A stretch of 26,324 nt of DNA, taken from NCBI GenBank assembly GCA_012800625.1, contig JAAZIY010000352.1, forward strand, positions 1 through 26,324, written 5' to 3'. This document shows positions 8,879 through 23,164 of the stretch, piece after piece. Position 1 is the first letter of the stretch, and the number at the start of each line of letters is the position of its first letter. Under the pieces are notes generated by a model that ran no database searches, was not told where the DNA came from, and saw only the letters and a list, made by a program, of their open reading frames with translations. A program made the translations under genes and the position numbers. Origin of the DNA: Lentisphaerota bacterium (lineage in GTDB: Bacteria > Verrucomicrobiota > Lentisphaeria > Oligosphaerales > Oligosphaeraceae).

Positions 8879-9637
8879 TTATTGTCCGGGATAGGCAAAG
8901 TCGGGCAGCAGTATGGACTTTTCCCCCTCTTTGATCTCGCCCTGTTTTTTTTCCGGCACAATAAGCGTAGGTTTGCGCATCTCAGCCTGTTGTCGCTGCT
9001 CCAAGACCTCTTCGCTGACTTGCAGTTCGAGTTTTTGCCGGCTTTCCGGGTAGAGCCTGGCATAGCAGTGTTGCAGAGCCAGGATAAAGTCCTCCTCTTT
9101 TTTTATGGCGGAGAGGTCCACTCGGGTGTCGCCGTCAATCTCGATCAGGCTGCTGTCGTTGATCTTGATTTCACTTTCCGGCTCGCCCTCTTGTGGAGGC
9201 TTGTATGCGATGGTGAAATATATTTCACTGGGCTTGCTGTCCACGGCGGCATGAGCCAGCTCCACTATACTGCTTGGAGCGAGCATCTCCTCGGCAAAGC
9301 GCATCTTGATGTGCAGCAGCGCCTCGGAGTTGCCGTACTGCTTCAGGTTCTCGTGACTGGGTTGGGTTGTTTCATCCTCGTCGGGCAGCTCGCTGCCCTG
9401 CAATAGCGTGGGCGGGGAAAAAATATACTTCAGCGGCTTGTGCAGCACAAAGGCGATTATGCCAACTAGAAGCAGCGCGCCAGGCAGCACCAGGCGCAGC
9501 AACAAACGGCGACGGCGCAGCCTCTCAAATTCAGACAACTGTTCGTGCTTTGACTGGGCCTGACTGCTGTCAGACGGTGAAAACAGGGACTTTGAATACT
9601 GTTTGTCTGCTTCTGTTTGCCCAGGCTTCATAAGCAA
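8879..9637 (-). CDS. Hypothetical single-pass membrane protein
   Basis: 252-aa ORF co-oriented with its neighbours; RRRRR followed by a hydrophobic stretch (LVLPGALLLVGIIAFVL); start may be 9631. Confidence 0.7.
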   Translation of the reverse strand: MLMKPGQTEADKQYSKSLFSPSDSSQAQSKHEQLSEFERLRRRRLLLRLVLPGALLLVGIIAFVLHKPLKYIFSPPTLLQGSELPDEDETTQPSHENLKQYGNSEALLHIKMRFAEEMLAPSSIVELAHAAVDSKPSEIYFTIAYKPPQEGEPESEIKINDSSLIEIDGDTRVDLSAIKKEEDFILALQHCYARLYPESRQKLELQVSEEVLEQRQQAEMRKPTLIVPEKKQGEIKEGEKSILLPDFAYPGQ

Positions 9638-10303: not shown

Positions 10304-12214
10304 TCAGCCCATGTTTTTCAGCTGCAGCCCGTCGAGGAACTCGGCGTTGCTCTTAGTGGTTTTGAGCTTGTTGACGATCATTTCCATAGCGTCGTTGACG
10401 TTGGTTCCACTGATGGCTTTGCGCAGTGCCCAGATTCTTTCCAGCTCATGTGCGGGCACCAGCAGCTCTTCCTTGCGCGTGCCGCTCTTTTCCATGTTGA
10501 TGGCTGGATAGATGCGTTTGTCGCTGAGGAAGCGGTCCAGGTGCAGTTCCATGTTTCCGGTGCCCTTGAACTCTTCGAAGATAACCTCGTCCATGCGGCT
10601 GCCGGTATCTATCAAGGCGGTGGCCAATATGGTCAGGCTGCCGCCGTTTTCGATGTTTCTGGCTGCGCCGAAGAATCGTTTTGGCTTATGCAGCGCATTG
10701 GCGTCGACGCCGCCGGAGAGTATGCGTCCCGAGTGCGGCTCGATGGTGTTGTAGGCTCTTGCCAGGCGGGTGATGCTGTCCAGGAGGATAACCACGTGTC
10801 TGCCGTATTCGACCAGTCGCTTGGCCTTTTCGATGACCATTTCGGCCACCTCGACATGGCGGTCTGGCGGCTCGTCAAAAGTGGAGCTGACGATTTCGGC
10901 CTCGACATTGCGCTGCATGTCAGTGACCTCTTCGGGGCGTTCGTCAATGAGCAGCACGATAAGTGTGACGTCGTCATTGTTCCTGGTGATGCTGTTGGCG
11001 ATTTTTTGCAGGATGACGGTTTTGCCGGTGCGCGGTGCGGCCACGATTAGCCCGCGCTGGCCGCGGCCCACCGGCGTAATCAGGTCAATGACGCGGCATG
11101 ATATTTCGTTTCTTTCGCGTTCGAGCACCAGTCTCCGCGTGGGGTAGAAGGGGGTCAGGTTTTCAAAGGGGACCAGGTCGCGTTTGCGCTCAGGCGGCTC
11201 GGCGTTAATGGTCTCCAGCTTAGTCATGGCGAAGAAACGCTCTTTTTCCCTGGGGCGGCGTATCTGCCCTACTATGGTGTCGCCGGTGCGCAGCAGGAAG
11301 CGCCTCACTTGAGTTGGACTCAGGTAGATGTCCTCGGGGCATTCCTGATAGCTGAAGTCGGCACTGCGCAAAAAGCCAAAGCCCTCCTGGGTTACTTCGA
11401 GCACGCCGCTGCCGTAGGCCAGGCCGCCGGACTCGGCGTCGTTGCGCTCGAAAATCTGCTCAACCAGTTCTCGTTTTTCCAGGGACTCGGGCTTTTCGAT
11501 GTCTAGTGCGGCGGCGATTTCGAGCAGCTCGGGCAGCTGCAGGCTGCGCAAGTGCTCGATGTCCAGGGCTTCGCGCATGGCTGGCTCGGCAAAGCTGTAG
11601 TCCGGCCCGTCTTGGGTCAAGGCGTCATAGTCCTCGAAGTTGTAGTAGGCCTGCTGTTTGCCGCGAGCGGAGCGTCCGCCGCGCTTGGCCTGGCGCTGCG
11701 CCTCGCGCAGCGGGCGCGGCAAGGCACGTGGAGCGCTCTCTTGGCGGCTTGGCTTGGGGCGCGGCGGTGTTTTTTCCTTGGCAGGCGGGCTGGGTTTGAT
11801 GACGGCGCGGGGCGCCTGCGGCTGTCCGTCGCTAAGGCTGACCAGGCCGGGGGTTCCGGTTAGCGGCAATATGCCTTTGCCCAGCTTGAAACCCAGCTTG
11901 CTGACTCCCTCCGCGGGAACATCGCCGTTTTCAGTGCTCGCATCCCGCAGGCCCTTGTCATTGGACTGTGGCTCTGCCGCGTGAGCCTCACTGAGGGTCA
12001 GTGCAGAATCTTTTTCTTTTTCAGCTTCCATATCCGACTCCTCGGCTTTGTCGAGTTTTTTTTTGCCTGCCGCCTTACTATCCTCGGCCTGGCTCGGTTC
12101 TTCGCTGGCAGCGGTTTTTCTGGGACGTCCGCGAGGTTTGGGCTTGTTTTCCGGCAAAGCCTCTTCAGGAGGCGTCTGCTCGGCCTTGATTGTTAGTTCA
12201 GGGTCTGTGCTCAT
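10304..12214 (-). CDS. rho: Transcription termination factor Rho with an approximately 215-aa N-terminal extension
   Basis: [58 protein letters not shown] and FKGTGNMEL. Confidence 0.98.
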
Positions 12215-12988: not shown

Positions 12989-13214
12989 GAAAGAAACACC
13001 TTAAAGGTCAGCATTACAAGCAATAATCAGCATCGGGTACAGGCACCTAAATACAGGCTCTGAAAAGCATAGATGCGCAAAATCACGGGACGATTGAAAA
13101 AAGACTCTACAATTATAAGAAAGCAATATCTGCGTGCAAATACAAGTATAGCCTGAAATAAACAAAAAGCAAGTCCAGGCCTACGGAATTTCGTAAAATG
13201 CCGGGCATAGCGGA

Positions 13215-13256
13215 TTTTGCCGGCCAGTCACTCAAATCATACTGGCGGCGGCAAAA
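13215..13256. other. Inverted repeat / hairpin in the coaE-zinc-protein divergent intergenic region
   Basis: TTTTGCCGGCCAGT, 12-nt loop, ACTGGC(GG)CGGCAAAA: 14-bp stem with a 2-nt bulge. Confidence 0.6.
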
Positions 13257-13391
13257 AAAAACGCTACTTGCTCTGGGCTAAGCCATGAAAAATCAAGCGC
13301 TTACTTGTAAAGCGCATTTGTCGGATTATTTTTGCCTATGCGACTGGTTTGCTTCATTTCATCTGTTTTTGTCTGACAAGGAGAATTTGCC

Positions 13392-15434
13392 TTGGGCGAT
13401 CATTTTGACAATTTCGGCAGTCTGGGCGACTTGTTTCCGACCTCTGAGCTTAAGTGCCGTATTCGCGGCTGTGACAACCTGGTGCAGGTCAGCGGCGAGC
13501 AGGCCATGTATAATGCCGCGCGGGGACAGTCCGGCAGGCCCGACAAGATGTGTCAGAGCTGCTACGAGCGTTTTTTGCAGCTTGAGGACCGGGAGCAGCC
13601 CTGCTCGAAGCCCGGCTGCTCGGGCAGCTGGGTGTGGAACCGCTTTCAGCAGCTCGAGGCTTTGGCATACGGCAACTATGATAATCCGCCCAAGGGCCTC
13701 TGCGAGGCCTGCCGGCAAGAAGTCAGGGAAGGCAGCGATGTGGAGCAGAAATGCCGTATGCGGGGCTGCAAAAACACCTGGGTGTGGAGCAGCAGGATGC
13801 AATTGCAAAGCGGACTGGACAAGCCGCCCAAACGGCTCTGCGAGGAATGCTTCCAGACATTGAAAACACTGCATGACCAAGAGCTGCCCTGCCGCATCAA
13901 ATCCTGTCAAAATAGCTTTGTCTGGAATAAATACCAGCAGCTCGAACATCTGCTTTCGGGTAAAAAACTCGATGCGCCGCCCCCCCGGATGTGTGAGCCT
14001 TGCTTCCAGAAGTTTCGCTTGTTGAACAATAGCGTGGAGCCTTGCAAGATCAGCGGCTGTTCGGGTACTTGGGTCTACAACGCCTACGAGCAACTCGAGC
14101 GGCAGCTGGCCTGCAAAGAGGGGGAAAGCCCCGCAAAGCCCAGCCGCATGTGCAATCAATGTTTCGACTTCTTCAATAATTGCAAAGACATAGAGCTGAA
14201 CTGCAAAAACCGGCACTGTGAGCATAAATGGCTGTGGACGCGGGGCATGCAGCTGGGATACCGCCTGAGAAATCCGGAGGGCAGGCCGCCGGCCAGAATG
14301 TGCAAACAGTGTGTGGAAAAGCTGAAGTCGCTCTCCACCCTGCAGGAACCTTGCTCACAGCAGGGCTGCAACGGCAGCTGGAACTATGAGCCGGAGGAGC
14401 AGCTGCTCGATCAGCTGGCCGGCAAGAGGCCGGCAGCCAAAGCCTGCAAGACATGCCAGGACTTCCTGGCCAGCCATGAGAGCGCGGAGATAAGCTGCAG
14501 CCAGTGCGGCACTGTGTTCCTGTGGAGCAGCCATGAGCAACTGCTGCATAGCCTGGGGGTCTTTGACAAACCACAGCTTTGCGCCAACTGCGTAGGTGCA
14601 AAAATGCGGCAAATAACCCCAAAAGAGGCGCCTAAGCCTGCTCCAGAGGAGCGTTTCAGCATACGCATACCCCAGCGCGGCGCCTGGCAAAACAGCGCCG
14701 TCATTCGGGATTGGCCGCCACATATGAACATAAGCGCCATACGCGAGCTGGAGGAAGCCAGCCTGCGGGTGCTCTGTTTTGGAGACGAGCTTACCTTTTG
14801 CTCGGCCGAGAGCGAAAAAGGCTGGCCGGCCATGCTCAAAAAACGCCTGCAAAAGCGTTATGAGCCGGAGTTTGGCCGGCTTGGCCTCATCAATGTCGGC
14901 ATGCCAGGCTCCAATACGGCTTTGTCCATTCGGCGTTTCGAAAGAGATGTGCTCCCCTTTGAACCGCATTTGCTCATCTTTTCATTTGCCTTTAGTGACA
15001 CGTTTATGCTTGACCGGCATGAGCGTGCCCAAGCCGCCGAGGCCCTGGCCAGGTTGAGTGAGGATTTCGAGCAATTGCTGCGTCAGTTTGAAAAACTGCC
15101 GCCGCTCTGCCGCCTGCTGTGCTGGCTGCCTAACCCGATATTCCCGCAAAAGGAGCAAATTATCGATGCGGACTGGCGTGAACGCGGCAACCTGGACCTG
15201 CCGCTGCTGGAGTTCTACGAGAGCCTGCTGCGGCAAATGAGGCAAAAATGCCAGAGCGCCGGCCTGAATTGCCTGGAAGGACGCACGCTCTTTGAAATAG
15301 GCGGGCGACAAACCGCCCTGAAATGGATGCAGAACTGGTACCTGCCTAACGAAATCGGCCAAAATAGCTTCGCTGGATGGTTCGAGAATATCATACAAAG
15401 AGAAAACCTGCTGCAACCCAGAGAAGAGAACTGA
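13392..15434 (+). CDS. Protein with eight tandem zinc-ribbon-like repeats and a degenerate SGNH/GDSL-fold C-terminal domain
   Basis: TTG start behind AAGGAG; residues 22-400 carry 8 repeats of Cx(2/4)C...W.W...QL...P...CxxC; C-terminal VLCFGDEL, INVGMPG, SFAFSD and LPNEIG. Confidence 0.9.
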   Translation: MGDHFDNFGSLGDLFPTSELKCRIRGCDNLVQVSGEQAMYNAARGQSGRPDKMCQSCYERFLQLEDREQPCSKPGCSGSWVWNRFQQLEALAYGNYDNPPKGLCEACRQEVREGSDVEQKCRMRGCKNTWVWSSRMQLQSGLDKPPKRLCEECFQTLKTLHDQELPCRIKSCQNSFVWNKYQQLEHLLSGKKLDAPPPRMCEPCFQKFRLLNNSVEPCKISGCSGTWVYNAYEQLERQLACKEGESPAKPSRMCNQCFDFFNNCKDIELNCKNRHCEHKWLWTRGMQLGYRLRNPEGRPPARMCKQCVEKLKSLSTLQEPCSQQGCNGSWNYEPEEQLLDQLAGKRPAAKACKTCQDFLASHESAEISCSQCGTVFLWSSHEQLLHSLGVFDKPQLCANCVGAKMRQITPKEAPKPAPEERFSIRIPQRGAWQNSAVIRDWPPHMNISAIRELEEASLRVLCFGDELTFCSAESEKGWPAMLKKRLQKRYEPEFGRLGLINVGMPGSNTALSIRRFERDVLPFEPHLLIFSFAFSDTFMLDRHERAQAAEALARLSEDFEQLLRQFEKLPPLCRLLCWLPNPIFPQKEQIIDADWRERGNLDLPLLEFYESLLRQMRQKCQSAGLNCLEGRTLFEIGGRQTALKWMQNWYLPNEIGQNSFAGWFENIIQRENLLQPREEN

Positions 15435-15447
15435 TGCGACACACAGC

Positions 15448-15540
15448 TTTTTTGAACACTAGGCCACGAAGTCACACTAAGTCACACTAAGTCACACTAA
15501 GTCACACTAAGTCACATTGAGTCACATTGAGTCACATTGA
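15448..15540 (+). repeat. Dispersed repeat, copy 7: head plus 4x GTCACACTAA and 3x GTCACATTGA
   Basis: TTTTTTGAACACTAGGCCACGAA, then exact 10-bp units at 15471-15510 and 15511-15540. Confidence 0.95.
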
Positions 15541-15630: not shown

Positions 15631-15658
15631 TTGAGAAAATTCAGATTGGCATTATACT
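15631..15658 (+). promoter_or_regulatory. Putative sigma70-type promoter of the pal operon
   Basis: TTGAGA, 16 bp spacer, TATACT. Confidence 0.5.
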
Positions 15659-15728
15659 AGGCTAATTACAGTTTTTTACGCTTGTTTAGGTTTTTTTGCT
15701 TTTATCATTTGAAGGAGACATTATTATT

Positions 15729-16400
15729 ATGCTTGGCAAGTTAATTAAGCCTCTGCTCGCGGTTTTGCTCGTCAGCCTACTTTTCAGCGCTTGTACGAAG
15801 AAGCCGAAGATTGACCTAAGCGGCCTGCGCGAGTCTCCAGCCGGCTCGGGTGCCCTGCGTGTCTCTACCGGCGCAGATCAGTTTGGTGGTCAAGGCTTTG
15901 AGATTCTTGACGGTTCCGAGCCGCTTTTCAGCGAGTTCCAGACCGGCGACTCCGGCGGTGCTCTTGCCGGCGGCGCGCTTGGCGCCGAAGGCTGGGACGA
16001 CTTGGCGAAGCCATTGGCCACTGGCGCCGATGGAGACGGTTTTTTGCAGGACTCGAGAGCTTGGAACGATGTGGTTTATTTTGCCTATGACCGCTCTGAG
16101 GTCCTGCCCTCGGAGCGCTACAAGCTCGATGCTCTGGCACAAAACCTGTTGGCCGCTCCGGAGCAGGGGCTGGTCATCGAAGGGCATTGCGATGAGCGCG
16201 GCAGCGACGAGTACAACCGGGCACTGTCCGAGCGCCGCGCCTTGTCGGTGCGCGAATATCTCGGCAATCTCGGCGTTTCCATTGAGCGCATGCAGACCAT
16301 CAGCTATGGTGAGGACCGTCCGGTGGTTCCTGATGCCCGCAGCGAGTCTGAGCACCAGAAGAACCGGCGCGCACAGTTTTTGCTGGGCAAGCGCAAATGA
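15729..16400 (+). CDS. pal: OmpA-family peptidoglycan-associated lipoprotein (Pal-like)
   Basis: Lipobox LFSAC; VYFAYD, IEGHCDERGSDEYNRALSERRA, SYGEDRP and NRRA; ATG 15729 behind GAAGGAG. Confidence 0.88.
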   Translation: MLGKLIKPLLAVLLVSLLFSACTKKPKIDLSGLRESPAGSGALRVSTGADQFGGQGFEILDGSEPLFSEFQTGDSGGALAGGALGAEGWDDLAKPLATGADGDGFLQDSRAWNDVVYFAYDRSEVLPSERYKLDALAQNLLAAPEQGLVIEGHCDERGSDEYNRALSERRALSVREYLGNLGVSIERMQTISYGEDRPVVPDARSESEHQKNRRAQFLLGKRK

Positions 16401-16879
16401 CCCTGCTTGTCGAGGTCTGTGCCGCAGTTATTTTAGACCAGTCTGGCCTGTTGTTGGCCACCCGCGCGCCGGGCAAAGACCTGAGCGGGCAGTGGGAGCT
16501 GCCCGGCGGCAAACTGCATAGCCAAGAGACGCCTGCTGAATGTATCAGCCGAGAACTGCACGAGGAACTCAGGCTGACTGTTGAGCAGGCGTCTTTGTTT
16601 TTAAGCATGGTGCATCATTATCCTCACAAGTCCATAAGACTGCACTTCCTGCATTGCCGCTTGAGCAGACAAGACCCAATGCCGCAGGAAGGCCAAAAAA
16701 CCGCACGCTTCAACAGTACAGAGCTGCCCTGGCAGCATATGGCCGAGGCCGACCGCCTAGCCCTGGAATTCCTGCGCTCGGCAAAATGGCGCATCAATAC
16801 GGGGCAGGGCACTGAGCTGCCCGAAATAGTCGATTTGCCCCTGGCTGAACGCATACACCACTGGCTGAAGCTGTCCTGA
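16397..16879 (+). CDS. NUDIX hydrolase, MutT-like
   Basis: WELPGGK..SQETPAECISRELHEEL Nudix box; ATGA overlap with the pal stop. Confidence 0.9.
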   Translation: MTLLVEVCAAVILDQSGLLLATRAPGKDLSGQWELPGGKLHSQETPAECISRELHEELRLTVEQASLFLSMVHHYPHKSIRLHFLHCRLSRQDPMPQEGQKTARFNSTELPWQHMAEADRLALEFLRSAKWRINTGQGTELPEIVDLPLAERIHHWLKLS

Positions 16880-17846: not shown

Positions 17847-18215
17847 ATGAATTTCTACACCATAGTACGCCCCGAGCATCTTAATCACTATAACTACTTG
17901 TTTGGCGGGGTCTTGCTGCGCTGGGTGGACGAGTTCGCCTACCTGGCCGCAGTGCGCGAGTTCCCCGCCGCCCGCTTTGTCACCCGCGCCATGCATGAGA
18001 TCGAATTCACCAAAAGCGTGAAAAACGGGGCCATGCTCAGGTTCCAGGTGGAACGTGAAAAATGCGGCATTACTTCAGTGAGCTATAGAGTGGTGGTCTA
18101 CGCCAGAGACTTGCAGGAACATGATGAGTATCATGTCTTCGAAAATGTCGTCACCCTGGTCTCATTGACCAAAGAGGGAGAGAAGACCCCGCTGCCGAAA
18201 AATGTGAAAACGTAG
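17847..18215 (+). CDS. Acyl-CoA thioesterase (hotdog fold)
   Basis: VRPEHLNHYNYLFGGVLLRWVDE and FVT....IEF. Confidence 0.88.
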   Translation: MNFYTIVRPEHLNHYNYLFGGVLLRWVDEFAYLAAVREFPAARFVTRAMHEIEFTKSVKNGAMLRFQVEREKCGITSVSYRVVVYARDLQEHDEYHVFENVVTLVSLTKEGEKTPLPKNVKT

Positions 18216-18225
18216 AAGGAGAAAA

Positions 18226-19215
18226 ATGAGGATACTTTTTATTGGCGGTACCGGTAATCTTTCCTTGAGCTGCGCCGAGCTGCTGGCCAGCCGTGGACAT
18301 CAAATCAGCATGCTCAACCGTGGCAAAAGCAAGATCGAGACCCCGTTTGAGCAGATAATTGCCGACCGCAACCAGCCCGGAGCATTGAAAAAAGCCCTGG
18401 AAGACCGGTATTTTGACGTTATCGCCGATTTTATCTGCTTTGATGCCGAGCAGGCGGAAACCGCCTTCGAGGCCTGCAGCGGGCGCTGTGCGCAGTATAT
18501 GCTTGTCAGCACCACCGTCGTGTATGCCAAACCGCATGACAAAATACCGGTGACCGAGCAAAGCCCGCTGGGAAACCGCTTTTCGGCTTATGGCAGAGGA
18601 AAGGAGGCGGCGGAAAAATATTTGTTGGCGAAACTGGCCAGCGAGGGCTTTCCGCTCACCATCGTGCGCCCTTCGCACACATATTCGCAGCGCTGGCTGC
18701 CCAATGTCGTCAATAGCTTGGGTTATACCCTGGCGGCAAGACTGGAGCAGGGCAGGCCGGTCTTTGTGCATGATGACGGCCAGGGGCTGTGGACCTTGAC
18801 CCATGTCAGAGACTTCGCCGTCGGCTTCGCAGGACTCTGCGGCAACCCCAAGAGCATAGGGGAGGCCTACCAGATCACCTCCGACATGGTGCTGACCTGG
18901 AACCAGATCATGCGCGAAACCGCCCTGGCGCTGCAGCTTGACGAGCCTGAAATATTGCATATACCCAGCGAGTTTATAAGCCGTATAAGACCGGAAATGG
19001 CAGACAAGCTTTTTGGCGATAAGGCCTGCGACGGAGTCTTTGACTGCTCGAAGCTGAAAAAACTGGTGCCCGACTTTGACTGCCGCATATCTTTCCGCCA
19101 AGGCATACGCGAGTCGATCGCCTGGTTCAAGGAGGACCAGAGCCGGCAGACAAGCGATCCCGAAGTGGACCTGGTCTTCGACCAGGTCTGCCAGGCCTGG
19201 AAAAAACAAGCTTAG
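18226..19215 (+). CDS. NAD-dependent epimerase/dehydratase (extended SDR)
   Basis: GGTGNLS, LNRG, YGRGK (YxxxK) and IVRPSHTY; AAGGAG SD. Confidence 0.88.
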   Translation: MRILFIGGTGNLSLSCAELLASRGHQISMLNRGKSKIETPFEQIIADRNQPGALKKALEDRYFDVIADFICFDAEQAETAFEACSGRCAQYMLVSTTVVYAKPHDKIPVTEQSPLGNRFSAYGRGKEAAEKYLLAKLASEGFPLTIVRPSHTYSQRWLPNVVNSLGYTLAARLEQGRPVFVHDDGQGLWTLTHVRDFAVGFAGLCGNPKSIGEAYQITSDMVLTWNQIMRETALALQLDEPEILHIPSEFISRIRPEMADKLFGDKACDGVFDCSKLKKLVPDFDCRISFRQGIRESIAWFKEDQSRQTSDPEVDLVFDQVCQAWKKQA

Positions 19216-19250
19216 CTCTCTGTCTAAAAACAGAAAATAAAGAGCGCTAC

Positions 19251-19276
19251 TTTGAACACGAAGGCACACAAAGGGC
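19251..19276 (+). repeat. Dispersed repeat, copy 8
   Basis: TTTGAACACGAAGGCACACAAAGGGC. Confidence 0.7.
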
Positions 19277-21196: not shown

Positions 21197-21268
21197 TTTA
21201 GCACACGAAGACACACGAAGGGGAAGGACACGAAGGGACACAAAGGGACACGAAGACACACAAAGGGC
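21197..21268 (+). repeat. Dispersed repeat, copy 9, between convergent heparinase gene and mrdA
   Basis: TTTAGCACACGAAGACACACGAAGGGGAAGGACACGAAGGGACACAAAGGGACACGAAGACACACAAAGGGC. Confidence 0.85.
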
Positions 21269-23090: not shown

Positions 23091-23164
23091 TTTTGGACAC
23101 TAAGACACACTAAGACACACTAAGACACACTAAGACACACTAAGACACACAAAGACACACTAAG
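23091..23164 (+). repeat. Dispersed repeat, copy 10: head plus 6x (T/A)AAGACACAC, between mreD and mrdA
   Basis: TTTTGGACAC, 5x TAAGACACAC, AAAGACACAC, TAAG. Confidence 0.97.

Follow-up and report, generated by a model that had tools for sequence, protein, structure and literature searches.

Introduction

Eukaryotic regulators typically carry long arrays of small zinc modules, few of which are known from bacteria. The polydactyl C2H2 proteins, such as YY1, WT1 and ZNF410, string together modules of 28 residues with a Cys2His2 ligand set. Closest to the repeats described here is zf_Tbcl (PF13451, 'Probable treble clef domain', formerly zf-trcl), a domain of about 45 residues with a hairpin-borne Cys pair and a helix-borne CxxC; this family is itself uncharacterised, so that membership gives no function. 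Among solved structures, the best match of one repeat is the CR3 zinc domain of HPV E7 (2b9d, 6iwd), a CxxC...CxxC module of strand-strand-helix-strand-helix topology. The second fold that enters the comparison is that of the SGNH/GDSL hydrolases (PF13472, Lipase_GDSL_2), represented among the closest solved chains by E. coli TesA/thioesterase I, 1yzf, 4rsh and 7ddy. The OSK domain of Drosophila Oskar (5A4A) has the same fold, is fused to a LOTUS domain and binds RNA through a basic surface. All SGNH-fold structures in a published survey carry the nucleophile Ser save the non-enzymatic OSK domain, the sole structure of that dataset with Asp at this position and an RNA-binding domain devoid of the triad (PMC10792757).

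Here we describe a gene within a window of 26,324 nucleotides (the whole stretch of DNA analysed, contig JAAZIY010000352.1 of a Lentisphaerota bacterium) whose product, P0001, combines eight tandem Cys4 repeats with an SGNH-like domain. Databases name its homologues only 'hypothetical protein' or, automatically, 'SGNH/GDSL hydrolase family protein', and our literature search found no paper that mentions the family, none on PF13451, zf-trcl or zf_Tbcl, and nothing relevant on tandem treble-clef or zinc-ribbon arrays.

Results and discussion

A transcribed gene for a cytoplasmic protein

The gene and the elements at its 5' end are:

13392..15434, + strand: whole gene, an open reading frame for the 680-residue protein P0001 with an eight-repeat Cys4 array and an SGNH-like domain, a predicted pseudoenzyme
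13379..13384, + strand: Shine-Dalgarno sequence AAGGAG, 8 nt 5' of the TTG start codon, read from the sequence
13413..13439, + strand: conserved N-terminal peptide FGSLGDLFP (residues 8-16), predicted disordered

Metatranscriptome contigs span positions 13374-15494 and cover the whole gene, with one contig starting at 13374, and RNA depth is zero in the intergenic stretch upstream; the array gene is transcribed. The absence of a signal peptide and transmembrane helix, noted in the preliminary description, agrees with a Kyte-Doolittle maximum of 1.06 over 19 residues (-0.05 within the first 30 positions), and the product is, judged by its sequence, cytoplasmic. In the N-terminal peptide, G9, G12, F15 and P16 are each at least 90% conserved in the orthologue alignment, residues 1-15 are modelled by AlphaFold2 with pLDDT below 50, and related arrays in Myxococcota are headed by a similar motif, GF.xL.D.L.

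Eight repeats with a constant junction

The array consists of eight tandem four-Cys repeats of about 50 residues, CxxxxC...CxxC in repeats 1-7 and CxxC...CxxC in repeat 8:

13440..13586, + strand: repeat 1, residues 17-65, CRIRGC...CQSC, the most divergent CxxxxC repeat, without the W-x-W strand
13587..13736, + strand: repeat 2, residues 66-115, CSKPGC...CEAC
13737..13874, + strand: repeat 3, residues 116-161, CRMRGC...CEEC
13875..14027, + strand: repeat 4, residues 162-212, CRIKSC...CEPC
14028..14186, + strand: repeat 5, residues 213-265, CKISGC...CNQC
14187..14336, + strand: repeat 6, residues 266-315, CKNRHC...CKQC
14337..14480, + strand: repeat 7, residues 316-363, CSQQGC...CKTC
14481..14615, + strand: repeat 8, residues 364-408, CSQC...CANC, of the canonical zf_Tbcl (PF13451) type

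The Cys pairs stand at residues 22/27 and 54/57, 71/76 and 104/107, 121/126 and 150/153, and 167/172 and 201/204 in repeats 1-4, and at 218/223 and 254/257, 271/276 and 304/307, 321/326 and 352/355, and 369/372 and 397/400 in repeats 5-8. All 16 pairs and 32 Cys listed in the preliminary description are thus present, and the interval it assigned to them, 13455-14591, coincides with the stretch bounded by the Cys22 and Cys400 codons, both included. Residues 22-400 (379 residues) hold 34 Cys, against six in the other 301. Every one of the 32 motif Cys is invariant across 78 orthologues of 27-84% identity, and almost all full-length relatives have exactly seven CxxxxC and nine CxxC motifs; to judge from these sequences, the Cys pattern is not due to chance.

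The spacing is equally regular. The second and third Cys are 23-30 residues apart in all eight repeats, and in 675 of 679 junctions precisely 13 residues separate the fourth Cys from the first Cys of the next repeat, while the loop within the repeat varies in length. In repeat 5, relatives carry frequent insertions in the loop ahead of the second Cys pair (repeat length 48-115 residues). A repeat of the zf_Tbcl type, as in repeat 8, closes every array of the family. Repeats at the same position in different orthologues are 40-51% identical, compared with 21-40% between different positions, and the alignments indicate that the eight positions have remained distinct in sequence from the origin of the family onward.

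A semi-conserved Arg/Lys and a W-x-W strand recur in each repeat, with V-Q-V instead in repeat 1; the W/F-x-W/Y strand that had been ascribed to every repeat is missing from the first. The repeats have no conserved His in their alignment, and so do not present the Cys2His2 ligand set of C2H2 fingers.

A predicted treble clef akin to zf_Tbcl

AlphaFold2 modelled the full-length protein with a pLDDT of 90.1 and a pTM of 0.49, and a two-repeat unit with a pLDDT of 90.1 and a pTM of 0.71. Each repeat takes the form strand-knuckle-strand-helix-loop-CxxC-helix. By DSSP, C22/C27 lie between strands E18-21 and E30-33 and C54/C57 at the start of helix H55-63, an arrangement repeated in all eight. The models thus predict a treble clef, one Cys pair sitting in a hairpin knuckle and the other at a helix N-terminus. 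The repeats had originally been described as zinc-ribbon-like, a label that the models do not bear out: a zinc ribbon was ruled out as the second Cys pair begins a helix in every modelled repeat.

The same geometry bears on the metal. Four-Cys sites can bind Fe(II/III), and the hosts include organisms of anaerobic habitats, so that a rubredoxin-like array of iron sites acting as a multi-centre electron carrier might be envisaged. We consider this extremely improbable: rubredoxin has a two-knuckle fold, as opposed to the predicted treble clef with its helix-borne second Cys pair, Pfam scans returned no rubredoxin family, and about 50 residues per centre would probably place the centres too far apart for electron transfer.

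Two-repeat units superpose with a TM score of 0.93 on an orthologue and 0.77-0.91 on Myxococcota arrays. Because the junction measures 13 residues in nearly all cases and these units superpose across phyla, neighbouring modules are probably held in a fixed register. The overall shape is uncertain and some junctions may flex, given the low pTM of the full-length model and its rmsd of 15.6 A from an orthologue's AlphaFold DB model.

The suggested likeness of repeat 8 to PF13451 was recovered with scores on both sides of the gathering cut-off of 24 bits: 24 bits, flagged over the cut-off, in a six-frame genome scan, and 18.4 bits (E 0.0022) for residues 366-405 in the whole-protein scan. The orthologues P0018 and P0130 scored 29.5 and 24.8 bits. 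Across the repeats compared, 15 of 127 matched PF13451 at E <= 0.01, and repeats 1-7 were unmatched. With hhalign, repeat 8 aligned to the profile of repeats 1-7 over 40 columns with a probability of 95.7% (E 9e-9), and repeats 1-7 aligned among themselves with E of about 1e-23. On this profile evidence, repeats 1-7, which the preliminary description had already called a CxxxxC variant, are divergent, homologous to zf_Tbcl and missed by Pfam. The repeats of the array share with zf_Tbcl the hairpin Cys pair, the helix CxxC and the predicted fold, and differ from it in the CxxxxC knuckle of repeats 1-7 and in the joining of eight copies by the 13-residue junction. Zf_Tbcl_2 and the CxxC-x17-CxxC family (PF23477, TIGR04272) were absent at E <= 1 from Pfam and NCBIfam scans of the protein.

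Single-domain zf_Tbcl proteins overlay one complete repeat, from the hairpin to the second helix, at about 3 A over some 50 residues, which supports pairing of the four Cys within one repeat. The alternative, in which a CxxC would pair with the CxxxxC 13 residues downstream, was rejected on this ground, and is further opposed by the full-length alignment of repeat 8 with repeats 1-7 and by the unpaired motifs that it would leave at both ends of the array.

Comparison of the repeat with known structures was uninformative on function. In the PDB, the top Foldseek match had an E of 0.78, which is not significant, and among 48,161 chains compared with VIA-align the top match, also not significant, was HPV E7 CR3 (Z 2.6-2.9), which has no sequence relationship to the repeats. 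A viral structure library yielded only phage proteins named 'putative zinc-ribbon'. The missing structural match for a module of 50 residues is not evidence of a new fold. The array shares with polydactyl C2H2 proteins the use of tandem small zinc modules and a local likeness around P-C-x4-C-x3-F/W (weak HMM matches, E 6e-4 to 3e-3), whereas its modules are Cys4 and about 50 residues long, with an extra helix, rather than 28; homology to C2H2 fingers was rejected, as PDB sequence searches with the whole protein and with the repeat profile gave weak motif-level matches only.

An SGNH fold without its catalytic residues

The array is followed by two further segments:

14616..14756, + strand: linker, residues 409-455, its first part disordered, then a conserved IP..G.W...WP.H leading into the SGNH-like domain
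14757..15431, + strand: SGNH/GDSL-fold domain, residues 456-680, with block I GDE (E466), block III AFSD and block V N648...P652

Linker residues 409-416 have a pLDDT below 50 in the AlphaFold2 model, and P427, G430 and W432 are invariant in the orthologue alignment. Scanned alone, the C-terminal domain matched PF13472 at 40.9 bits, above the gathering cut-off of 32.9, and 60 of 60 orthologues matched it at E <= 0.01; the family is not listed in the Pfam scan of the whole protein. Foldseek against the PDB placed the domain with GDSL esterases at E of about 1e-8 (best 2e-8; target TM 0.7-0.85). The domain is an SGNH/GDSL member by sequence and fold, and the fusion of a modular array to an SGNH domain, recognised in the preliminary description, is sound.

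Like the hydrolases, the domain has GD in block I, N-x-G in block II and N..G in block V. It differs from them at the catalytic positions. The nucleophile position is Glu in 42, Asp in 41 and Ser in 6 of 94 relatives (E466 in P0001), and the block III Asn is replaced by Ala (54/94), Gly (18/94) or Ser (14/94; S535 here). The Asp-x-x-His of block V is not conserved: P0001 has N648 and P652, and position 652 is His in 50 and Pro in 33 of the 94. The oxyanion-hole Gly of block II is kept (G503, 87/94), and Ser, Asp and His are combined in a single relative out of 94. Because the catalytic residues are lost and 83 of 94 relatives have an acidic residue, Glu or Asp, in place of the nucleophile Ser, the domain is predicted to be a pseudoenzyme, without the catalytic Ser, His, Asp and Asn.

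D465, N501, G503, S531, D536 and N653 are highly conserved and R515, R518 and D519 are conserved too. These residues and the acidic nucleophile position could support unrecognised chemistry rather than mere binding. An active enzyme in which Glu/Asp466 or a bound metal drives a hydrolase or transferase reaction, with the array only positioning the domain, would be consistent with this conservation, with the nearly always acidic residue 466 and with the score above the Pfam GDSL_2 cut-off. We judge it very unlikely nonetheless, as none of Ser, His, Asp and the block III Asn is both present and conserved, the surveyed SGNH-fold structures all have the nucleophile Ser except OSK (PMC10792757), and relatives exist that consist of the array without the SGNH domain.

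The OSK domain resembles the C-terminal domain of P0001 in its SGNH fold, its acidic residue at the nucleophile position and its lack of a triad, and differs in its fusion to LOTUS instead of a zinc array; the domain of P0001 is moreover acidic (pI 5.6; family median 5.7). No kinship in sequence came to light, 5A4A being absent from a PDB profile search at E <= 10, and OSK is retained as a functional precedent only.

Distribution and genomic neighbourhood

We found 112 homologues. Within one order of Lentisphaerota, the gene is present as a single copy in 73 of 75 genomes, including 28 of 28 high-quality genomes and representing 37 of 37 genera; a search of about 190 further genomes from the phylum did not recover it. 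The repeat matched 195 of 1.84 billion representative proteins, and beyond the order these are mostly from Myxococcota, some of which carry related arrays of 2-9 repeats. Other multi-copy zf_Tbcl-like proteins also exist, and the earlier view that the PF13451 domain occurs in single or double copies was thus incomplete. Forms of exactly eight repeats without the SGNH domain exist in Myxococcota, which argues that the array can function independently. The C-terminal tails of the Myxococcota arrays match no Pfam family and look disordered. Carriers of the family include organisms of anaerobic habitats (landfill, digesters and biogas plants).

The features downstream of the gene are:

15465..15536, no strand: 10-bp tandem array, 7.2 copies of CACTAAGTCA, which starts 31 nt 3' of the stop codon
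15696..16400, + strand: gene for a Pal-like OmpA-family lipoprotein (Pfam OmpA), a conserved downstream neighbour, with a likely start ATG near 15730
16397..16879, + strand: gene for a MutT-like NUDIX hydrolase (Pfam, synteny), a conserved neighbour in Lentisphaerota

The Pal-like gene scored 105.7 bits against TIGR02802 (Pal), below the cut-off of 125, and a promoter scan gave it a promoter-like site of its own at 15631-15658. Synteny with the Pal-like and NUDIX genes was found in 23 of 40 loci of the order. Clustering of open reading frames over 41 loci showed the downstream Pal-like/NUDIX(/LipA) genes to be recurrent and upstream ABC-transporter genes to recur in a few genera; the 17 loci without the Pal-like/NUDIX synteny have no common partner in this clustering. 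In a clade of Myxococcota, the array gene also adjoins a MutT-like NUDIX gene and neighbours a tig-clpP-clpX-lon protein-quality-control cluster. Because the array gene and its neighbours are convergent or divergent there, they do not form one operon. The neighbouring MutT-like NUDIX gene, in two phyla, is the only recurrent genomic lead. The expectation of an undescribed system is narrowed: the family is uncharacterised, but what is conserved is one gene, not a multi-gene 'system'.

The RNA contigs break at the 10-bp array, copies of which are present at other loci. Short-period arrays (8-11 bp), of varying sequence, are common between the genes of related genomes. The tie between the gene and the local 10-bp repeats, raised in the preliminary description, was rejected, the arrays being a general intergenic feature whose excess beside the gene is too small in a rough count.

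These neighbours could be read as signs of a redox or zinc sensor, or of a redox-switched chaperone, in which oxidation would free zinc and unfold the array, yielding a stress signal or a holdase surface as in proteins of the Hsp33/RsrA type. Thirty-two invariant thiolates in one cytoplasmic protein, the anaerobic-habitat carriers, the neighbouring MutT-like enzyme in two phyla, a sanitiser of oxidised nucleotides, and the protein-quality-control cluster of the Myxococcota clade would all be consistent with such a role. However, similarity to Hsp33 or ZAS anti-sigma factors goes no further than a non-significant Foldseek row (E 1.8), the synteny is partial and in Myxococcota does not amount to one operon, a sensor has no obvious need for eight position-specific modules with an invariant junction, and the dead SGNH domain would be left unexplained. 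We therefore regard this role as quite unlikely.

A polydactyl reader of nucleic acid deserves somewhat more attention, although we still consider it unlikely. Each module would contact a few nucleotides of RNA, single-stranded or double-stranded DNA, and the dead SGNH domain would be a further RNA-binding module, for which OSK is the precedent (PMC10792757), with Asp or Glu at the same position in most relatives. The relative P0186 has its repeats fused to TPR and an SF2 helicase, the Myxococcota arrays hold Lys/Arg-rich inserts such as KKRRRSKRARKPR, and weak structural neighbours of the zf_Tbcl kind are named as cold-shock, helicase, restriction-endonuclease and HNH proteins; the semi-conserved Arg/Lys with the W-x-W strand of each repeat and the MutT-like neighbour in two phyla would also fit. 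Against this, the net charge of the array is only +7 without its eight Zn(Cys)4 centres, and with these sites at -2 each it would be net acidic, as is the SGNH-like domain. The basic residues flank the Cys ligands and may simply offset the Zn(Cys)4 charge by neutralising thiolates, the structural neighbours are not significant, OSK is absent from the profile matches of the domain and the 10-bp arrays are not specific to the gene.

In its most developed form, this reading would make P0001 a bacterial polydactyl counterpart, a stiff, position-specific reader with eight modules for an extended polymer, such as RNA, single-stranded DNA or repeated DNA, that feeds a partner docked on the SGNH domain or the peptide and is coupled to the MutT-like NUDIX hydrolase in nucleotide or nucleic-acid quality control, a proposal that we find distinctly doubtful. 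The repeated DNA meant here would be, for example, the 8-11-bp intergenic arrays of the clade.

A putative zinc-pinned scaffold

The function that we propose for P0001, with about even confidence, is that of a non-enzymatic, cytoplasmic, metal-structured scaffold or adaptor, formed by an extended zinc-pinned array with docking ends that include the dead SGNH domain. Each of the eight predicted treble-clef modules would hold one Zn(II), the metal that we infer, through its four invariant Cys, two from the beta-hairpin knuckle and two from the N-terminus of the second helix. This second helix would pass through the invariant 13-residue junction into the next hairpin, and the fixed register of neighbours would give an elongated and, by extension to the whole array, largely stiff platform. 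The FGSLGDLFP peptide and the SGNH-fold domain are likely docking elements at the two ends. Because the catalytic residues are lost and other SGNH-block residues are kept, the SGNH-fold domain most likely binds a ligand rather than hydrolysing one, and the binding or scaffolding role of the protein as a whole is put forward on the same conditional terms.

Conclusions

This analysis corrects the automatic label 'SGNH/GDSL hydrolase family protein' and its mistaken suggestion of an esterase. The zf_Tbcl treble-clef domain gains a CxxxxC subfamily that current Pfam models miss, and the C-terminal domain would be a second case, after OSK of Oskar, in which an SGNH fold has outlasted the catalytic residues. 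The lineages that carry the array have little experimental biology, and the fixed eight copies, the invariant junction and the near-universal single-copy retention in one order of Lentisphaerota point to an important cellular role for this protein.

An array of eight four-cysteine modules

Residues 17-408 of the array protein (P0001) form eight tandem repeats of 45-53 aa each, of which repeats 1-7 carry the pattern C-x4-C ... C-x2-C and repeat 8 the pattern C-x2-C ... C-x2-C. The repeat consensus reads D-x-E-(V/L/I)-P-C-R-x-(R/K)-G-C-x-(N/G)-T-W-x-W-(S/T)-x-R-x-x-Q-L ... G ... P-P-x-R-(M/L)-C-x-x-C-F-x-x-L, with the aromatic strand missing from repeat 1. All 32 motif Cys were invariant in an alignment of 78 orthologues (27-84% identity to the query), and almost all full-length relatives had exactly seven CxxxxC and nine CxxC motifs. 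Profile comparison placed repeats 1-7 close to one another (E about 1e-23) and identified repeat 8 as homologous to them (probability 95.7%, E 9e-9). The eight tandem four-Cys repeats proposed in the preliminary description are thus real, and its claim that signal peptide and TM helix are absent was also borne out: P0001 lacks both a hydrophobic N-terminus and TM-like segments (Kyte-Doolittle 19-residue window, maximum 1.06). Between proteins, identity was 40-51% for repeats at the same position versus 21-40% at different positions, implying an old array whose position identities have been kept, with no recent expansion or fast shuffling.

The AlphaFold2 model of P0001, based on the 78-sequence alignment, had a mean pLDDT of 90.1 and a pTM of 0.49, with pLDDT below 50 in residues 1-15 and 409-416 only; repeats 3-4 modelled separately gave a pLDDT of 90.1 and a pTM of 0.71. 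The predicted order is the same in every repeat (strand, Cys knuckle, strand, helix 1, loop, and a CxxC that starts helix 2), and because this second CxxC sits at the N-terminus of helix 2, the predicted fold is a treble clef and not the zinc ribbon that had been proposed. The suggested kinship of repeat 8 with PF13451 did stand: this family (zf_Tbcl, 'Probable treble clef domain') is the sole Pfam match in the array, and was found on repeat 8 at 18.4 bits (E 0.0022, under the 24-bit cut-off) in the whole-protein scan, at 24 bits in a six-frame genome scan, and at 29.5 and 24.8 bits in orthologues. Only 15 of 127 individual repeats matched it, so the CxxxxC repeats are a divergent subfamily missed by this model. 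AlphaFold DB proteins that consist of one 'probable zinc-binding domain' overlay a complete repeat (about 3 A across about 50 residues), supporting a single site made of the four Cys within one repeat, and Zn would be the metal expected for such a cytoplasmic Cys4 treble clef. Searches of solved structures gave no significant match to the repeat (best E 0.78 with Foldseek; best Z 2.9 with VIA-align, for HPV E7 CR3), a result that does not demonstrate a new fold, the module being so small.

Thirteen residues separate the last Cys of one repeat from the first Cys of the next at each of the query's seven junctions, at 675 of 679 junctions in Lentisphaerota-type relatives, and at most junctions of other carriers. 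The intra-repeat loop, in contrast, spans 23 to 30 residues, and repeat 5 accepts insertions, reaching 115 aa. A two-repeat model superposed on its counterpart in an orthologue (TM 0.93, 1.2 A) and on Myxococcota proteins (TM 0.77-0.91). Because the junction is constant while the loop varies, and the two-repeat units superpose, we infer that neighbouring modules are held in fixed register. The modelled shape of the whole array is uncertain, given the pTM of 0.49 for the full-length prediction and an orthologue model lying 15.6 A rmsd away. The array could possibly act as a redox or zinc switch, but this function would leave both the position-specific modules and the fixed junction unexplained.

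In one genus (g2; genomes G073, G079, G100, G109, G196 and others), the open frame of the orthologue spans 750-1140 aa and the match to the query breaks at residue ~250, inside repeat 5; this split points to a large insertion within that repeat.

A predicted pseudoenzyme and conserved ends

Residues 420-680, when scanned alone, matched Lipase_GDSL_2 with 40.9 bits, above the Pfam gathering score of 32.9, and the match was recovered at E <= 0.01 in 60 of 60 orthologues. Foldseek related this domain to GDSL esterases and TesA (E about 1e-8, target TM 0.7-0.85), and a PDB profile search agreed with the SGNH/GDSL assignment. The nucleophile position is occupied by E466 in the query and by Glu (42/94), Asp (41/94) or Ser (6/94) across the family; at the block III Asn site the query has S535 and most relatives carry Ala, Gly or Ser; and in block V the query has N648 and P652, with His kept in only 50 of the 94 relatives. 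Ser, Asp and His occur together in a single relative out of 94. The C-terminal domain has lost its catalytic set and is a predicted dead SGNH fold; an active esterase is unlikely. Other positions in the SGNH blocks (D465, N501, G503, S531, D536 and N653) and an R515/R518/D519 helix are also conserved, and this conservation suggests a retained binding site.

Throughout an SGNH-fold survey dataset, Ser is the nucleophile except in the OSK domain of Oskar, which binds RNA, has Asp at this position and is not an enzyme (PMC10792757). The SGNH fold with an acidic residue in place of Ser is common to OSK and P0001, a functional precedent that lends indirect support to the idea preferred in the preliminary description, namely that the array reads nucleic acid; the PDB profile search gave no sequence relationship between OSK and the P0001 domain. 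Against this idea, the SGNH-like domain is acidic (pI 5.6), the charge of the array is modest, and its conserved Arg/Lys residues adjoin the thiolates.

Conservation extends to both flanks of the array. In the N-terminal FGSLGDLFP of P0001, which lies in a region predicted to be disordered, G9, G12, F15 and P16 are at least 90% conserved. A similar motif, GF.xL.D.L, stands at the head of many Myxococcota arrays, and on this resemblance the N-terminal motif is probably a docking peptide. Ahead of the SGNH-like domain, the segment IP..G.W...WP.H is conserved, and its P427, G430 and W432 do not vary.

Distribution and architectures

A word-indexed search recovered 112 homologues from Lentisphaeria or Victivallales MAGs, whose labels, where named, were automatic ('hypothetical protein' or 'SGNH/GDSL hydrolase family protein'). 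Within the Oligosphaerales, the order of the window, the gene was detected in 73 of 75 genomes, including 28/28 high-quality genomes, 37/37 genera and 12/12 families; it is essentially always single copy, as in the window's own genome, and about 190 genomes from elsewhere in the phylum gave no match. Two orthologues (G242:C8:10364-12358 and G249:C24:3580-5592) have one in-frame stop each, TGA and TAA, which may reflect pseudogenes, assembly errors or recoding; such stops were absent from all other matches listed in this order-wide search.

A single-repeat profile compared with 1.84 billion representative proteins gave 195 matches at E <= 0.001, and the named carriers besides Lentisphaerota were Myxococcota MAGs labelled Polyangia, Myxococcales or 'Deltaproteobacteria'. 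Some of these proteins consist of the array alone (about 400 aa, with 32 Cys in precisely eight repeats); in others, 6-7 repeats lead into disordered tails, and Lys/Arg-rich inserts are present. Every complete array read is closed by a repeat-8-type CxxC module. Besides the SGNH-like domain, the only repeat fusion to a Pfam-annotated domain that we observed was P0186 (1769 aa, from a Logan contig), in which five or six N-terminal CxxxxC repeats precede TPR and an SF2 helicase core (DEAD/ResIII and Helicase_C). Both this helicase fusion and the basic inserts in Myxococcota would be consistent with nucleic-acid reading.

Genomic context and transcription

The array gene lies in the window between divergent coaE and rho on the minus strand and three genes on the plus strand:

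13392-15434, plus strand, array gene (P0001), single ORF of 680 aa
downstream, plus strand, Pal-like OmpA lipoprotein gene
downstream, plus strand, MutT-like NUDIX gene
downstream, plus strand, lipA

Its start codon is TTG, with an AAGGAG Shine-Dalgarno sequence 8 nt upstream, and the span originally assigned to the repeats (13455-14591) starts precisely with the Cys22 codon and ends with the Cys400 codon. Antisense ORFs at the gene are shadows, because conserved homologues exist for the plus frame only. Three metatranscriptomes yielded contigs spanning 13374-15494 (99-100% identity), and RNA contig depth was zero across 13174-13310, in the intergenic DNA upstream, and almost zero across 15640-15776; the gene is therefore transcribed, probably as its own transcription unit. 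A promoter-like site is located at 15631-15658, ahead of the Pal-like gene. The organism was detected repeatedly in metagenomes from landfill, anaerobic digesters and biogas plants.

Among 40 distinct loci of the order with enough downstream sequence, 23, from four families, have the array gene followed on the same strand by the Pal-like and NUDIX genes. This gene order is missing in six other families and one genus, and the loci revealed no other recurrent neighbour; genus g2, with the probable repeat 5 insertion, has lost it. In five loci of a Polyangia-like clade (L051, L052, L054, L055 and L056), lon-clpX-clpP-tig lies on one strand and the array gene next to it on the opposite one; on the other side of the array gene come a convergent MutT-like NUDIX gene and a hybrid response-regulator/histidine kinase. 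Array proteins of this clade have Lys/Arg-rich inserts within the repeat loop and long acidic, Pro/Ala-rich tails. The clade's NUDIX protein is 28% identical to that of the window, both have MutT models as best matches, under cut-offs, and the MutT-like neighbour is absent from two other Myxococcota loci. A MutT-like neighbour in two phyla serves as a lead rather than proof, and lends indirect support to nucleic-acid reading.

In a family f2 locus without the Pal-like/NUDIX synteny (L008/L013), mreB shares the strand of the array gene and ends 64 bp before it, with an ExbB/ExbD/TonB_2 (TolQRA-like) cluster about 3-5 kb upstream, and L001 and L010 carry a class A PBP gene after NUDIX or lipA; these neighbours may reflect a cell-envelope theme, or chance. 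Elsewhere in the window, the Rho factor (10304-12214, minus strand, 636 aa) has about 215 low-complexity, Lys/Glu/Pro/Ala-rich residues ahead of its Rho_N domain, which starts at residue 222, and two minus-strand ORFs (18151-19269, 372 aa; 8879-9637, 252 aa) matched no Pfam family at E <= 0.001.

Tandem arrays of 9-10-bp units occupy five intergenic stretches of the window:

15465-15536, intergenic tandem array, after the array gene stop
23097-23164, intergenic tandem array
21226-21267, intergenic tandem array
1001-1032, intergenic tandem array
10-109, intergenic tandem array

The units CACTAAGTCA (x 7.2) and ACACTAAGAC (x 6.8) have a CACTAAG core in common. In metatranscriptome X15, the stretch 15366-15502 reached a depth of 325 with loose ends running into different flanks, indicating array copies at several loci that are present in RNA libraries. 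Arrays of 8-11-bp units of other sequence are frequent in the intergenic DNA of related genomes (e.g., 10 bp x 36 in locus L039). A specific link between the 10-bp array and the array gene found no support; the array at 15465-15536 belongs to a class of short-period arrays that recur intergenically in the window and in related genomes.

Proposed function

The anatomy, conservation, predicted fold, catalytic loss, distribution and transcription of P0001 would be most consistent with a scaffold or adaptor that lacks catalytic activity, is held together by eight putative Zn(Cys)4 centres and carries docking elements at both ends. Its two kinds of domain, a treble clef of the zf_Tbcl type and an SGNH fold, are known; what is undescribed is the CxxxxC subfamily, the fixed number of eight copies joined by an invariant junction, and the pseudoenzyme partner. 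P0001 represents a genuine protein family that is conserved, transcribed and uncharacterised, of interest to structural, PVC-group or myxobacterial biology.
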